This document shows, piece after piece, positions 53,471-61,877 of a DNA stretch of 64,000 nt. Each line of letters begins with the position of its first letter. Within the stretch, counting starts at the first letter, position 1. A program made the translations under genes and the position numbers. The notes beneath the pieces are model-generated. The model did no database searches, was not told where the DNA came from, and saw only the letters and a list, made by a program, of their open reading frames with translations. The DNA is from Heterodontus francisci (lineage: Eukaryota), in assembly GCF_036365525.1 (NCBI RefSeq), contig NC_090374.1, forward strand, positions 14,673,168 to 14,737,167. The letters are read 5' to 3'.

Positions 53471-53793
53471 ATTATTACTGAAAGGAATTGATCTAATTCG
53501 TAGTTGCCTCATTCAAATGGCACCCCCTAGAGCTTGGTCAATGAGTGTCTGTGGACTATTTGACTGTGAGAGCCTCACAGGAAGGTCCAATGTCTCATTC
53601 AATGTCCAATAAGACACCTTCCTGCAGGAGTGTCTGGAAAGTGATCAGGAGCAGGAATCCCGGGCAATATTCCCCTTTCAAAGCCCGGGATTGCTGAGAG
53701 TTTATTTACCCGTGTGGTTCAGGACCAGACCAGGTGGAGCCTTTAGCCATTGAGCTATCGGGGCAGCTGCAGCCCCTGAACATTGTTCCTCAC

Positions 53794-54177
53794 CTTCCAC
53801 TCTCAGACTCGTTAGTTTCAGTGTTTGATGTTTTCCAACAGTGAGCTCCACACGACACCGATAATGACCACTGTCCGCCCGGATCAGCCGCTCCATCATT
53901 ATTGAGACATCTTTGTTACTGAAGTTCCCCACGAATCTGAATCGATTCCCGCCGTCCTGCTGTATCACATTCTCACACAGCTCACTCTGTGAATGGCCTG
54001 GACCAGAATATGTACACTTAAAAATAACATTGTTACGGCCTTTGTACCATATCACAGAGCCGGTGACCGTCTGATCAGTGTGTGGGTGGGTGAAAGTACA
54101 CGACAAGACAGCGGACCCTCCTTCCTCAACACTCACTATATCCGCAGCGCTCATTGTCCAACCATTAGCAGAAACCT
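53794..54177 (-). CDS. SIGLEC15-like: N-terminal Ig V-set exon, Siglec-15-like sialic-acid-binding domain
   Basis: 384-nt phase 1-1 exon (tctctctccacag| ... GAA G|gtgagg). WTMS..EGGSAVLSCTFTHPH, VIFKC...SELC, RFRFVGN..KDVSIMMERLIRADSGHYRCRVEL parallels Siglec-15 (WSMQ..AVLPCTFTHPH, VFRC..SELC, RFRLLGN..NDLSLRVERL..YFCRVEF), including four Cys and the essential Arg. Confidence 0.93.
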
Positions 54178-54319
54178 CTGTGGAGAGAGAGAGAATATTA
54201 AAAGCGCGTGGGGACAGAGGTTAGGGATCGAAAACAAACTGCGACACAATATACTGAGTCTGTTATATAGTGACAACATCCAGTCAGATTGGGATAGTTT
54301 ATACACTGACTTTGGACAC

Positions 54320-54650: not shown

Positions 54651-56705
54651 TGTCATGCAGGTCCCCACCTGCCAAGCACGAGGCATATTAATTTTGCCAC
54701 ATGTACATTAAATTTCAAACTGTTTTTGAAGTGAAGAAAGGACTTACTTCAAAAAATGGCCAGATCTTGACTGGAAAGATATTTGCATATCAACAGACAG
54801 TGCTTGGAAAGGACAAAGGACCTTTCCCCTGACACATTCAACCCACAATGGACTTTGATCACCAGACGTTGAAGGTGGGGGAGCTCGCATTCCAGGTTGA
54901 CTGCTAAGTTGCACAAACAGACATGGTCAAACCAGCTAGTCACATGACTAACCTGCTGGGCAACCTGAGTTTTTTGAATTTGTACAAACAGTTTGGGCAG
55001 AAGGTCTGTTTGCTCCTGGACTGAGAAGATCTCTCCTGTTGCTCCCATCTCTTTCTCACTAGTCTCTGAATCCACTGAAGACACATGAATCCCAAGAGAG
55101 AAAAGTCTCCTACAGCGAACAAGGTTTAAGAAGAATACTGGGCCCCAATGAAATGCAAGATCTACCTACAATCAAGGACTCGACAGTGAACTCGAAGAAC
55201 CGTAACAACAACTCTTCAGATATTGCCTCAAACCTTTCCACTTTATTTTTCTTCTCTTTTCTGTCCCTATTTGCATGTGTGTACTGCATATGCATGCTAG
55301 CGTGGCTGTGTCATGTATCCGTAGGCATGAACCGAATTAGGGTTTAAGTTTATATTTAATAATTTTCAACTTTTCTTCTTTAAACCTAAGAAAGCCTTAT
55401 AATTGGAAAGCGGTGAACCAGGATTCACCAAAGGGGAGCTAAAAACACAGTGTGTTCAAAATTAAACCCTGTTACAGTAAGACCAGGTGAAGGTTGAGAG
55501 GGAACCCTAGATCCCTTTCTCGCCTGGTTGTAACAGAAATTTGGGTGCTAGTGTCTGAAAGTGCCCCACAGGCAAACAAGAAATTGGAAGTGGGAAGCCA
55601 AATTGTTCCCAATCAAAAAGGAGCAAAGATCAATACAGGTTTTCTTGTGGTTGTGTGTGATTGAATACTGACATGTCTGCAACTGAAGCCAGTAACTCCC
55701 CAAGCCAGGGTGAAGTAACTTGGGATGAGTTAAAAGCACTGTCTATGGAGGAATTGAGAAAAATGGCTGAGCAGTACTGAGTAGTACTGAGCAGTACGTG
55801 GCAAGGCTAGGAAGTCTGAACTCCTAAGACTAATGGCCAACCATTTTTCTCTTGAATGTAAAGAAACAGAAACAGGGGTAGAAGCAGATCCAACAAGGTA
55901 TTGTTAGCAAAGATACGATTGGAACAGAGGAAACTTGAAATAGAAGAGAGGGAGAAAGAAAGAGCCTTCCAGAAGGAACGTGAAGAAAATGAAAGGCAAG
56001 AGAGGGAGAGAGAAAGAATATTCCAGAAGGATTGTGAAGAAAGAGCTCTGAAACGGCTTGAGTTAACTATGGGGTGACAGAGTAACCCCAGTGAAAGCGT
56101 GGCCAATATGGAGGAGCGTAAGTCAGGGCTGGGTACAAAATTGTTAAAACTAGCTCAATTCATTCCAAAATTCAATGAGGAAGATGTAGAAGATATTATG
56201 AGTACATGTCTAGGCTGGCACTTGCAATGCAGTACTGAGGGAGTGCTGCACTATCAAGGTTGCCATCTTTTGAATGAGATGTACTGAGCCCCAGTCTGCA
56301 TCCTTGGGTGGATACAAATGATCACATGACACGTTATGAAGAGTAGCAGGGGAATTCTTGTGTCCTGACCAATATTTATCCCTCAACCAACGCCACTAAA
56401 ATAGATGATAATTTCTTGCAATTTATTACTATTTGTGGGACCTTGCTGTGTACATATTTACTTCCATGTTTCCCCCGTTACAGTAATTACATTTCGAAAA
56501 GTATTAGATTGGTTGTAAAATGCTCTAGGATGCTCTGAACACATAAATGGAAGTTGCTCCCTTTCCTTTTCTATCTTAAATTCTACCCTGCTTATTCTGC
56601 TGAGTAAATTAGCTTCAACCTGGGAAGCAAGGAGATGGATGGGTTTGTCTTGATGCTTACAGGCACGGAGGGGAAATTAGCAGAATTTCTGTTTGATCAT
56701 TATTG

Positions 56706-57925
56706 GGTTTTTCGAGAAGGTGACCAAACAGGTGGATGAGGGTAAAGCCGTGGATGTGGTGTATATGGATTTCAGTAAGGCGTTTGATAAGGTTCCCCAT
56801 GGTAGGCTATTGCAGAAAATACGGAAGTATGGGGTTGAAGGTGATTTAGAGCTTTGGATCAGAAATTGGCTAGCTGAAAGAAGACAGAGGGTGGTGGTTG
56901 ATGGCAAATGTTCATCCTGGAGTTTAGTTACTAGTGGTGTACCGCAAGGTTCTGTTTTGGGGCCACTGCTGTTTGTCATTTTTATAAATGACCTGGAAGA
57001 GGGTGTAGAAGGGTGAGTTAGTAAATTTGCGGATGACACGAAGGTCGGTGGAGCTGTGGATAGTGCAGAAGGATGTTGTAGGGTACAGAGGGACATAGAT
57101 AGGCTGCAGAGCTGGGCTGAGAGATGGCAAATGGAGTTTAATGCGGAGAAGTGTGAGGTGATTCACTTTGGAAGGAGTAACATCAATGCAGAGTACTGGG
57201 CTAATGGGAAGATTCTTGGTAGTGTAGATGAGCAGAGAGATCTTGGTGTCCAGGTACATAAATCCCTGAAAGTTGCTACCCAGGTTAATAGGGCTGTTAA
57301 GAAGGCATATGGTGTGTTAGCTTTTATTAGTAGGGGGATCGAGTTTCGGAGCCACGAGGTCATGATGCAGCTGTACAAAACTCTGGTGAGACCGCACCTT
57401 GAGTATTGCGTGCAGTTCTGGTCACCGCATTATAGGAAGGATGTGGAAGCTTTGGAAAGGGTGCAGAGGAGATTTACTAGGATGTTGCCTGGTATGGAGG
57501 GAAGGTCTTACGAGGAAAGGCTGAGGGACTTGGGGTTGTTTTCGTTAGAGAGAAGGAGGAGGAAAGGTGACTTAATAGAGACATACAAGATAATCAGAGG
57601 GTTAGATAGGGTGGATAGTGAGAGTCTTTTTCCTCGGATGATGATGGCAAACACGAGGGGACATAGCTTTAAGTTGAGGGGTGAAAGATATAGGACAGAT
57701 GTCAGAGGTAGTTTCTTTACGCAGAGAGTAGTAGGGGCGTGGAACGCCCTGCCTGCAACAGTAGTAGACTCGCCAACTTTAAGGGCATTTAAGTGGTCAT
57801 TGGATAGACATATGGATGAAAATGGAATAGTGTAGGTCAGATGGTTTCACAGGTCGGCGCAACACCGAGGGCCGAAGGGCCTGTACTGCGCTGTAATGTT
57901 CTAATTCTAAAAAAAAAAAATTCTA
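56706..57925 (+). mobile_element. 5'-truncated young CR1, same family as 3969-7157
   Basis: Near-identical to the reverse complement of 3969-5172; one TGG>TGA stop at 57014-57016; TTCTAA/A-rich tail. Confidence 0.93.
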
Positions 57926-59040
57926 AGAATTTTTGTGTCCTTTGAGAAATTGGCAAGGCAGCTAAAATGGCCAGCTGAGACCTGGCCTCTTTTACTGCAA
58001 AGCAAGCTCAGTGGAAAAGCCCATGAGGTCTATTCCTTGTTGCCAGATGAGAGTTCATCAAATTATGAAGGGACAAAAAGTGCTATCCTCGAGGCATATG
58101 AATTAGTATCCGAAGCCTATCGCCAAAAGTTTAAAACCCTCAAGAAGCAAGCTGATCAAACTTATCTGGAGTTTGAAAGAAGTAAGCAGCTGGCTTTTGA
58201 CCAGTGGCTGAGGGCTCTTAAAGTACAGCTCAGCTATGAGAATCTCAGACAAGTAATTCTGTTAGAGGAATTTAAACATTCTCTCCCACTCTCCATAAGG
58301 ACCCATGTAGAGGAGCAGCGGGTTCATAGAGCCCGGCAAGCGGCCGTTCTGGCCAATGAATTTGCTTTAATTTATAAGTTGGTTTCCCGGGGAGAACCTT
58401 TCCTAGTCACCCCCACAAATCCGAAAAGGACAAAGGGTGGGAAGGTGATAGGAGCCCAAGCAGTCCTGGAAGAGAAAGGAAAGCAGGAGACACAGGGACC
58501 CTCCTCTCACCAAAAAGAAGGTGCTGTGAGCAAGAGTGAGACCCAGAGACCTTAGTGCTTCCATTGTAATAAAGCAGGGCGTTTAAAAGCTGGCTGCTGG
58601 AAACTAAAGGGAAAACTTGTAGGGTTAATCAGATCACACCCACGCAGTGAAGAAGTGAACCTGATGGAAAGCACAGCAGAACAAGCTGTGGCTTTAACTG
58701 CAGCGAGAGTGAGACCCAGGAAGCTTACTGCTGCAAGTGCAGAAAAAGTTAGTCGGATTCCTGAAGGCTATCAGGGTTTTGTGTCCGAAGGGAAAATAAC
58801 CCCATACCCCTCGAGTGGGGCAAGCAAGCCCTTAGTGATTCTCAGGGAATCAGGGGCCACTATATCCCTTTTACTAGGAAAAGGCCTGACCTTTCCCCCA
58901 GAGAGTGCAGTGAACACCAAAACTATGGCGAATGGTATTGGAGGGCAGTGTATGCCTGTACCTGCACAGAGGGTGCACTCAGTTTCGGGACCGGTGACCG
59001 TAGGGATTGTCCCTAGTTTGCCTGTGGATGGGGTTGACGT

Positions 59041-61227
59041 TGTTAGCGGGAATGAATCTAGAAGAATCACTCAACATTCAGGTCTGCTCCAATGTCAAAC
59101 AGTTAATTGAGTTACGCCAGCGGGGAGCAGGTCACTGGGCTGTCCAGATGCCTCTCCACCGAACAAAGGAGCAAAAGCATCAATACTTATACATTTTCAA
59201 ACAGTTACTCAGCCCATCCTGGCTGGACATGGTCCAGTCACAACAATTATAGATCATATACATTGATTATTCGAGCCAATAGAAGTGGTTACTAGGCATG
59301 GACTGCACAACCGGCCCATAGGCAGATAGGGGATTACTCATGATGTTTTCCATTCCCTCTTATCCATTATCTTTAATGAGTCTTTGTTTGAATTTATGTT
59401 ACTCAGCTCCTGTGTGGAATGTGGTCAAGTTGGCTAAGCTCCATGATGCCTTGCAACCTCTTCATTGTTCACTAAGATTATACGTTACTGGTTACTCAAA
59501 TAACATTTAAACAGTATGATATTTACTGCAGGTGCCTCTGCGCTTGGGAATACCCGACAACAATCCCCTCTTTCGGTAGGGAGACTAACCCCAGTCTCCT
59601 TAACCGACACCATTTTTTTTTAACCCTTTAAACTCGCCCGGTATTCCCTGCTTCAACCACACTGGCCAGTCACGTGATTTCAGGAATTCCGGTCATATTA
59701 TATCATATTAATGTGATCCAAATGGCTTAGCTCCCCAGATAGACAAATTGTCTCTCTTGCTTTGGCTCTAGGTTTTACCTGCCTTCACCGCACATATCGT
59801 CTGTATGATCGGCAGGCCAGTATGCCCCATGTTATGGCCAGTATCAACTGTATTCCAACTAGCACATGAGAAATTATCCGAATCCAGGGGTGGATATTCA
59901 CATTCATTCCCCAATCCCAAATCTTCTCCCACCAGCTCCGGTTCTGCAGTTCTGTGTTAGTATCTTTCTCTAGCTTTTTGATTTTTGCCTGCAGTTGGTG
60001 GTAGAGTTTTACGGATTCCCTTAGTACCTCGGCCAGGTGTGGGATGGGGACTGGTTCTGGTTCCTCGTAATCCTGTCGGTGGTCATGGAGGTAATCAGTG
60101 ATGTTGATGGTCTCGGTATCTCTGCGCCAAACCTGGATAATTCGGGCTTGCCCTATAGTGACGGGTCGTAAGGGCGTAAAGCAAACATTAGGAAACGGGA
60201 TAGGGCATTGTAGATTATTGTAGCGGTAGGAACTTTCTGTAGTGGAGACGCAATATTTCCCTTTACCTCCATATCCTGTTCTTGCGAAATGCATGGGGGC
60301 AGGTATGATTTCTACGACACAACCGTCTGTTCGATTAAACCCACATTCATCCAATTCTCCCTGTCCCATTGGGTGTGGACATAGTGTAATGTCTCCCCTC
60401 TGCTTGCATCCCGTAAGGGAAATTCCATATAGTGTATTGTTCCTGAGTATGGCAGAGGTTTCAGTTAAATAGTAACGGAGGGAGGTGTTACCCCGTACGA
60501 CCCCAATATTTTCCAATTAGTAGTGGGGAAATGGCCCTGAGTCCCATGCTACTGTGGGGATCATCAGGACTACCCCCACTCCGGTATCTTTGCCCAATTC
60601 GCAGTCTGGGATCACTGGATATACTCTGGTGAGTCCTTTCAGTGTACAATTGTCCAGTGTACCTTTCCTCTCTGCTAATCGAGCTAAATGTGGGCTGTCT
60701 ATCCAATCGGGCAGCTCCTCCCTTTGGATCTGATCGAGATTGTGTCATATCTGTCCCACCATCCATAAGCCATAAGCGTGGCAGAGTTGTCCCTGCCTTA
60801 GCTTTCCGGCATCTTCCTTTTCTCTATCTGTGACGTGATTGATGGTCTTGGCATGGGCTTCTAATACCGTAATTCCATCTAATTGTATTCCCATGCCCTC
60901 TTCTCCTAGATTGGCCTGATCCGCCTGATTTTCCTCGGCTCTCTCTAAGAGTTCCTTCATTACTCCTTTCAGTCGTTCTACCTTTTCATTTAGACCTTGT
61001 ATGTCCAGTGAGTTTATGACGGAAGTACCAGTATTGACTCTAGTAGCAACATCGTTAACTACCCCCCTTTTTGTTCTATAAAGCTGATCCTGGCCTTGAA
61101 ATCTAGTGGCACCCATGGCATTGGCAGCCTGCTGCATTACAACCTTACTTCATACACTATACATATTTCTTGCCTGTTCTGTACAATATCCCGGCATTTG
61201 TATTCCGGGTCAGAATACCCGACAACA
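59041..61227 (-). mobile_element. Internally deleted env-bearing LTR element (endogenous retrovirus-like): 15-bp 5' LTR stub, env, PPT, 522-bp 3' LTR
   Basis: TSD ACGT at 59037-59040 / 61228-61231; LTR 59041-59562 with TGTT..AACA ends; PPT GAAAGAGGGGAT at 59563-59574; 61213-61227 is identical to 59548-59562. Confidence 0.9.
59785..61209 (-). pseudogene. env: Envelope/fusion glycoprotein pseudogene (F-type class I fusion protein architecture)
   Basis: One colinear frame of 475 codons with three in-frame stops (61150-61152, 60745-60747, 60517-60519); furin-type RTKR at 61066-61077, heptad repeats, Cys-rich domain, Trp-rich membrane-proximal region, C-terminal TM and basic tail. Confidence 0.85.
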
Positions 61228-61877
61228 ACGTGCTCCTTGGTAATGATCTGGTGGGGGTGAAGGTGGTAGCCCCCCCAGTAGTGAAAGAAAGACCGCAGGA
61301 GGTTAGAGAGGCAGCGGCGGGAGACGGACCCTTGCAGTTTCCCTGAATGTGTAGTGGATCAGGCCATGATCAAACCAGTTCCCCCAGAGGAGACTGAATT
61401 AGCACTGCAGGCAGATGACCAGGTCTATCTTTCCAAGACTATCTTTGGAAAGTTAGGAGACCCAGGGAATGAATTAAATGGATTTTCCCTAGGTGAGGCT
61501 CAGCGAGCCAACCCAGTATTGCAAGAGTTAGCACATGCTGCCCAGTCTGAAATTGAAGCAGAGGGAGTCCCTGGTTGCTACTATTTAAAGAATGAGGTAC
61601 TGATGAGGAAATGGATTTCTCTTGCCTGAGGGCAAGGAATGGTTGGTAGTTCACCAGTTAGTGGTGCCACAGAGGTATCGGAGAGAAATATTAAGAAGGG
61701 CCCGCCAGACTACAGTGGCTGTAGATGCTGGTATATGAAAGAGCAAAGCCCGTATAAGACAGCAGTTTGACTGACTAAAACTCCACAAAGAGGACTGCAG
61801 GAGTTGTCACATGTGCCAGGTTGAGGGGAAACACCAACCTACAGTGAAACCTGCACCCCTACGTCCTGTACCGGTAT

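Follow-up and report, generated by a model that had tools for sequence, protein, structure and literature searches.

An envelope gene resembling the fusion (F) protein of paramyxoviruses, left in a broken LTR element of a shark, raises two questions: which kind of retrovirus brought it there, and whether the encoded protein belongs with the F proteins in its fold. We addressed them in a 64,000-nucleotide stretch of the Heterodontus francisci contig NC_090374.1, referred to here as the window, and in the 6.0-Gb shark genome that contains it (G000). Our joint reading, in which we have good confidence, is of a dead provirus with a predicted F-type Env and a pol that is likely SnRV/ERV-S-like rather than lokiretroviral, foamy or errantiviral.

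The provirus in the window and its relatives

Positions 59041-61227 hold a dead provirus that has lost most of its interior and belongs to a high-copy family of shark retroviruses. Read on the minus strand, it consists of a 15-bp stub of the 5' LTR (61213-61227), identical to the start of the element's own 3' LTR, a broken env, a polypurine tract (59563-59576) that stands directly before the 3' LTR and is also found in other copies, and a 3' LTR with TG...CA ends (59041-59562). The target-site duplication (TSD) ACGT, four matching bases at each end, flanks it at 59037-59040 and 61228-61231. The LTR length of 522 bp given in a sequence-only reading of this DNA is true of the window copy but is that copy's own, about 90 bp shorter than the LTR of its closest copies (~610 bp); its first 191 bp are 97-98% identical to the paired LTRs of loci L031, L035, L037 and L038. 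A few unassigned bases separate the stub from env, and ~4-7 kb of provirus have been deleted there. As the 5' LTR is missing, LTR-pair dating is impossible for this copy.

The env remnant (59698-61206, minus strand), which shares 93-95% DNA identity with the same four loci, its closest copies, represents the 3' two thirds of the gene, without the signal peptide and the N-terminal Cys-rich domain. All peptides quoted in the sequence-only reading occur exactly in the minus-strand frame from 61227 to 59785: IQMPG at 61203, RTKR at 61077-61066 and GVVND at 61065, together with CKQRG, CPIPF, LYHQL, WWEKIW, the TM helix and RSYRRYVR. The three stops said to be read through lie inside that range, at 61150-61152, 60745-60747 and 60517-60519. 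A fourth, at 59785-59787, at the edge of the range given in that reading, is premature too, since the homologous tail runs 28 codons further, to 59698. Seven residues present in other copies before heptad repeat B are also missing, through a 7-codon deletion.

Three parts can be distinguished in the remnant, all on the minus strand. The remaining pre-cleavage segment (61078-61206) is F2-like by alignment of the model of an unbroken copy to RSV F. It is followed by a furin-type cleavage site, RTKR (61066-61077), whose pattern R-x-K/R-R is kept in most relatives, and by an F1-like membrane-anchored subunit (59788-61065), identified from model secondary structure and from Foldseek and VIA matches to F proteins; its 426 aa agree with the length of about 426 proposed earlier. 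This subunit contains, in order, a putative fusion peptide, a long heptad helix A, Cys-rich beta domains, heptad helix B, a Trp-rich membrane-proximal stretch, a TM helix (~59815-59885) and a basic tail. With promoter LTR and signal peptide gone and the frame cut by four stops, the window copy makes no Env; it is an ordinary dead fragment, and inert.

The provirus is inserted in antisense orientation into the protease part of a Gypsy element that encodes a SCAN domain and that we take to be Gmr1-like. On the plus strand, the left part of this host element, with gag (SCAN; Pfam E 4e-11) and zinc knuckle/protease, occupies 57911-59040 and the right part 61232-61629, the reading frame resuming across the TSD. 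Its segment 61285-61626 has at least 150 matches among 26264 candidates in G000. A LINE fragment at 56677-57910, presumably CR1-like, interrupts the gag of this Gypsy element, which makes the locus a nested stack. Elsewhere in the window, the open frame at 53705-54220 (minus strand) encodes an immunoglobulin V-set domain (E 2.4e-13) and is likely a host exon.

The env match is not a chance one, given the number of relatives: the last 243 aa yielded at least 150 scored matches among 5500 candidates in G000 (151 listed; the best non-self match among them has 94% identity), and database proteins added 15, of which 14 are from sharks. We took 20 env-bearing copies (L031-L050) with 10 kb, a sample that is biased because its members were chosen by env. 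Three keep pol (L034, L045 and, in part, L041), 16 have a common 2-kb internal stretch with 66% AT in place of gag-pol, and one has neither. The earlier statement that no pol survives and that the clade cannot be assigned is thus correct for the window copy in its first half only; since longer copies keep pol, the clade can be approached.

Among the 13 copies with both ends, the TSD measures 4 bp in six, 5 bp in three and 5 bp with one mismatch in two; one is ambiguous and one copy has none. Paired LTRs differ by a K2P of 0.003-0.047 where the pair aligned, two short or off-target alignments giving higher values. A K2P of 0.03 would correspond to ~70 My at the slow rate of 2.2e-10 assumed in Han 2015, or to ~7 My at a mammalian rate.

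Purifying selection acted on Env during the diversification of the family. Comparisons between groups, and those among the copies that retain pol, give a pairwise dN/dS of 0.17-0.24; within groups it is 0.29-0.32 in two and 0.57 in the window's group, from which L037 was omitted. Such selection is as expected for spread by infection and supports the proposal that the element is the remnant of an infectious LTR lineage. An unbroken env occurs in locus L044.

Two further observations concern the copies. Copies share 88-96% identity in the 2-kb AT-rich stretch, yet their env dS reaches 0.3-0.48 across the same groups. This contrast would be accounted for by exchange of env with helper viruses or by constraint acting on the stretch itself. 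Dense clusters with dozens of ERV copies lie at C40:22-40 Mb and C29:32-43 Mb of G000, the former containing RT and the latter broken env, likely through segmental or tandem expansion.

The retroviral carrier

The longer copies have the layout LTR, tRNA-Ser primer-binding site (PBS), gag, stop, pro-RT-tether-RNase H-IN, env, polypurine tract, LTR. L045 and L034, for instance, have a gag whose product carries two CCHC knuckles and, after an in-frame stop, protease, RT with LPQG and YVDD motifs, tether, RNase H, an integrase with a GPY-type end and env, and with PBS, polypurine tract and TSD both have the layout of Retroviridae. The 3' end of tRNA-Ser(AGA) is the complement of the PBS; six gene matches are exact, and ARAGORN confirmed three of the three checked. 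It is a weak marker, also present in L096 and L102 of another family. Together with L095, these two loci represent a high-copy ERV family with ~51% identical RT and no env-profile match within 10 kb.

The family RT scores 205 bits against MLV, 161 against foamy virus and 118 against Ty3. RNase H gives 117 bits with MLV/XMRV versus 23 with foamy virus, in a pairwise proxy comparison without a lokiretroviral positive control, and the best integrase match is foamy IN (118 bits), in a list containing no MLV core IN. As a control, the RT of locus L119 in the same genome reaches 179 bits with foamy virus and has no MLV match at 1e-8; it is clearly distinct from the family RT. This broken foamy-like RT (L119:3350-3946) indicates that a foamy-like ERV exists in G000.

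We built a quick RT tree of 102 rows, with eight near-duplicate or short proteins dropped, and a careful one of 52 rows (40 of 89 proteins, 11 loci and L119). The trees place the family in a shark clade (100/99) adjoining teleost rows, apart from L119 and outside a clade of gamma and epsilon-like sequences (100/100), the epsilon-like rows being unnamed host proteins; the family RT also falls outside the sister clade (100/97) of that gamma and fish epsilon-like clade. The foamy-like row of the careful tree, which has no lokiretroviral row, branches outside the family on long branches. In motif, too, the family differs, with NSPxWPV versus NTP in the gamma and epsilon-like rows. An IMG/VR scan with the family RT retrieved no relative, a homolog search with a 35-row alignment no named virus, and eight stretches 3' of Gmr1-like matches no RT for outgroup use.

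RT, RNase H, the tether and the L119 control together indicate a true retrovirus that is likely neither a lokiretrovirus nor a foamy virus or errantivirus, and the lokiretrovirus/errantivirus label of the sequence-only reading is not supported for the carrier. Errantiviruses resemble the family in their F-type Env, and the nearest Atlas clusters of the shark Env are Gypsy env/Baculo_F (bioRxiv 2023.10.26.564294 for the viruses). They have, however, a Ty3/Gypsy pol with a single RNase H, whereas the shark carrier combines a tether and second RNase H with a retroviral RT. Similarly, foamy viruses share an F-type Env core (PMC11468914) but are marked by foamy RT and RNase H, a Gag without zinc knuckle and a separate pol frame; the shark Gag has zinc knuckles, gag-pol continues in frame behind a stop, and RNase H is MLV-like.

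Our best guess, favoured with some reserve, is an SnRV/ERV-S-like carrier (clade Huo). It stays a best guess because the rows of the trees include none named as lokiretrovirus, SnRV, ERV-S/L or a virus of walleye, and because the two outgroups are long branches that meet. The family shares the tRNA-Ser(AGA) PBS, read-through gag-pol and TGT...ACA LTR ends with XtERV-S (PMC8278194) and CmiERV lineage I (PMC4422223); XtERV-S differs in its gamma-type Env, its dUTPase and its lack of a zinc knuckle (PMC8278194). An SnRV-like lineage is known from the elephant shark (PMC4422223), and clade III RTs, catalogued in bulk, are reported to account for most shark ERVs (PMC11089739).

A basal class I (epsilon-like) retrovirus, whose env would be an epsilonretrovirus-type Env and itself F-type, is the strongest alternative, although we consider it unlikely. 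The predicted Envs of the walleye viruses WEHV-1 (E 1.9e-10) and WDSV (E 2.9e-7) match our Env model and likewise have a long TM subunit without CX6CC; RT and RNase H are MLV-like, as are the walleye pol enzymes. Read-through gag-pol, CCHC knuckles, the GPY motif and 4-bp TSDs are ERV1 traits, zinc knuckles, GPY and many 4-bp TSDs being given as such in Table 1 of PMC4299795. However, the RT lies outside both the gamma and fish epsilon-like clade and its sister clade, in trees without a WDSV row, and has NSPxWPV instead of the NTP motif. The tRNA-Ser PBS is that of the class III XtERV-S (PMC8278194), 5-bp TSDs also occur, and the walleye Envs are much longer, with 1159-1317 aa versus ~714 here.

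The SnRV/ERV-S-like reading is challenged still less by a lokiretrovirus that would extend that group to cartilaginous fish, which is very improbable. Wang and Han 2021 (PMC7947760) describe lokiretroviruses from lampreys, bony fish, amphibians and reptiles, with no cartilaginous fish in the portions consulted. According to that source, their Env is of the same type, with heptad repeats and a TM besides an RXKR site, and their carrier has a tether and dual RNase H. Yet the lokiretroviral RNase H groups with that of foamy viruses at 96% support (PMC7947760), against the MLV-type scores obtained here, and the family RT is much nearer to MLV than to Ty3. Moreover, the lokiretroviral Env matches PF00523 at 2e-7, while the shark Env, related to Mononegavirales F by its predicted fold, has no Pfam match.

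Other ERV families of the genome were also seen with this env type. L083, L084, L085, L080 and L087 belong to older families whose pol is nearer to frog and coelacanth proteins, and weak env matches adjoin L094, L097, L098, L100 and L101.

Predicted fold of the envelope protein

The ectodomain of the unbroken natural copy L044 was modelled with a 36-row alignment, reaching a pLDDT of 66.8 and a pTM of 0.48, with pLDDT below 50 in the fusion-peptide region; an earlier model from a 13-row alignment (pLDDT 31.6) was not used. In a Foldseek search of the PDB, the F proteins of hPIV3, RSV, Nipah, NDV and Langya viruses rank top (E 1e-10 to 1e-8), and F proteins fill the listed rows of the 237 matches at E<=0.001. 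A Foldseek-independent search of 48161 chains gave Z 11.4 for RSV F (272 residues aligned, 4.8 A), 11.2 for hMPV F and 10.8 for NDV F, versus 6.1-6.3 for foamy Env, in line with the earlier judgement that a foamy-like env was the less likely alternative. Eight chains have Z>=8, and the ten best rows are all F proteins. A further structure comparison agrees, with overall Z of 11-12 for the F matches.

The alignments to F proteins cover 270-340 residues (model 10-400) at an rmsd of 4-5 A, including the beta domains and the F2-like strand, with TM-scores of 0.3-0.45 and 7-14% sequence identity. That the match reflects long coiled coils only, and that Env is an unrelated class I protein, is scarcely credible: coiled-coil proteins do reach Z 6-7 and identity to F is as low as just given, but unrelated helical proteins attain Z 7.3 at most with fewer than 140 residues aligned, short of the extent of the F alignments and of the PDB matches, whose listed rows are all F proteins.

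The neighbours in a language-model search (Gypsy env/Baculo_F/Fusion_gly at 0.91-0.93) agree with both structure searches, and the predicted identity of Env is that of a class I fusogen of F type, akin to paramyxo- and pneumovirus F, as had been proposed. The predicted fold shares with paramyxo- and pneumovirus F (hPIV3, RSV, hMPV, Nipah, NDV) the F2-like strand and helix, cleavage, long helix A, beta domains, helix B and TM. The proposal that the pre-cleavage segment is F2-like fits the model as well, in which residues from ~10 align with RSV F from residue 33. A furin site and a TM anchor are present, and CX6CC is absent from the window protein, as noted before, and also from the full-length relative P0002; the putative fusion peptide is weakly hydrophobic. 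In contrast to those F proteins, the shark Env is encoded by a retrovirus and, in complete copies (~714 aa), adds a Cys-rich N-terminal domain of ~130 aa and a Pro/Thr hinge. An Atlas search with this domain (P0002 35-155) returned no usable match. Two distant Env relatives, P0133 and P0156, have N-terminal V-set Pfam matches (E 0.045 and 1e-5).

Among predicted viral proteins, the model also matches fish filovirus and lispivirus glycoproteins, baculovirus F and paramyxovirus F, and among retroviral Envs, besides the walleye proteins, that of feline foamy virus (E 2.6e-5); WEHV-1 Env has 16% identity to the model, the highest among the top rows. At the sequence level, neither Pfam scans nor PDB sequence searches with the family env gave an F-protein match. 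The best PDB profile match is the HERV-K TM (E 0.007), restricted to the C-terminal helix and TM, and one of 30 distant Env relatives matches Baculo_F (E 0.001). A PF00523 search of G000, a stricter first pass without positive control, gave no match. A profile search of 1.84 billion representatives found 57 proteins at E<=0.001; of 20 examined, 18 are named and come from sharks, a skate, four frog genera and the coelacanth.

Proposed life cycle, origin and domestication

A complete virus of this family would make Gag-Pol by stop read-through. By analogy with known class I fusogens, its Env would enter the secretory route through a signal peptide and form a trimer. The general scheme comprises furin cleavage, fusion-peptide insertion and a six-helix bundle (PMC11468914). 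In this Env, furin would cut at RTKR and leave the F2-like part packed within the fold of the F1-like core, and the membranes would fuse as heptad helices A and B zip up into the bundle. Receptor binding or attachment was likely the task of the Cys-rich N-terminal domain, which the window copy lacks. Complete helper viruses probably mobilised the copies with the AT-rich stretch in trans. The window copy would be one of this group that then lost nearly everything 5' of mid-env and decayed.

Our findings suggest an F-type Env that is of old origin and widely distributed in the retroviruses of fish and amphibians. The article by Calcraft et al. 2024 (Cell) may already discuss F-type Env in fish retroviruses. 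With that article outside the search, we found no description of an F-type Env on such a retrovirus or in sharks in the excerpts consulted, which included PMC12583693, PMC11521997, PMC6001957, PMC13709493, PMC10536682, PMC10435555, PMC8922424 and bioRxiv 2024.07.05.601823. The sequence-only reading had named lokiretroviruses and errantiviruses as carriers of F-type Env, which holds, although the list was too short: F-type Env is known in lokiretroviruses (PMC7947760), errantiviruses (bioRxiv 2023.10.26.564294, whose consulted part does not mention sharks) and also foamy viruses (PMC11468914), and the walleye epsilonretrovirus Env models match as well.

Wang and Han considered four scenarios for how retroviral Env originated and did not decide between them (PMC7947760). 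An F-type Env found together with MLV-type pol enzymes, and in several RT clades of one shark genome, favours the F-type as the ancestral retroviral Env, as do the frog and coelacanth relatives and the walleye match. If so, the F-type would have been kept in lokiretroviruses, foamy viruses, epsilonretroviruses and the shark-frog-coelacanth lineage, with gamma- and beta-type Envs replacing it later. We advance this only tentatively, and jointly with the proposal that sharks domesticated one such F-type env, on C6, as a spliced gene; the combination of the two is somewhat doubtful. Such a domestication would be a syncytin-like capture of a fusogen of non-orthoretroviral type as a conserved host gene. 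Since Envs of this kind have no Pfam match, screens for gamma-type TM motifs likely miss them, domesticated copies included, and the C6 gene is a concrete candidate for a domesticated one.

Taken by itself, the domestication of the C6 env is likely, although the gene remains a candidate. Syncytin-like Env in chondrichthyans is the subject of a 2026 preprint (10.64898/2026.05.06.723177), which may cover this gene. The solo env, found by searching G000 with the distant relative P0112, is an unbroken frame of 754 codons (L051:1495-3759, minus strand; G000:C6:34172670-34174929). It is 23% identical to the window env and 85% identical (627/739, no gaps) to GCC29952.1 of Chiloscyllium punctatum. No gag/pol match and no LTR pair were seen in the 60 kb around it, and G000 has no near-identical copy, the nearest showing 79-85% DNA identity. 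Eight paralogues examined have 6-12 stops and ~60% identity, against the 85% of the C6 env to the Chiloscyllium protein.

Contigs from three organisms contain the C6 env; their source runs are only guessed to be RNA. The contigs of two organisms stop matching at a splice-acceptor-like AG just before the ATG, which suggests splicing. One contig of organism C covers the C6 frame with 292 differences in 2384 nt (88%) and no gap, and includes a block of the 3' flank. In organism B, the frame has 5 differences in 998 positions versus 13 in 464 in the 3' flank (Fisher p 0.0005), and another piece of the frame, with upstream DNA, has 15 in 1237.
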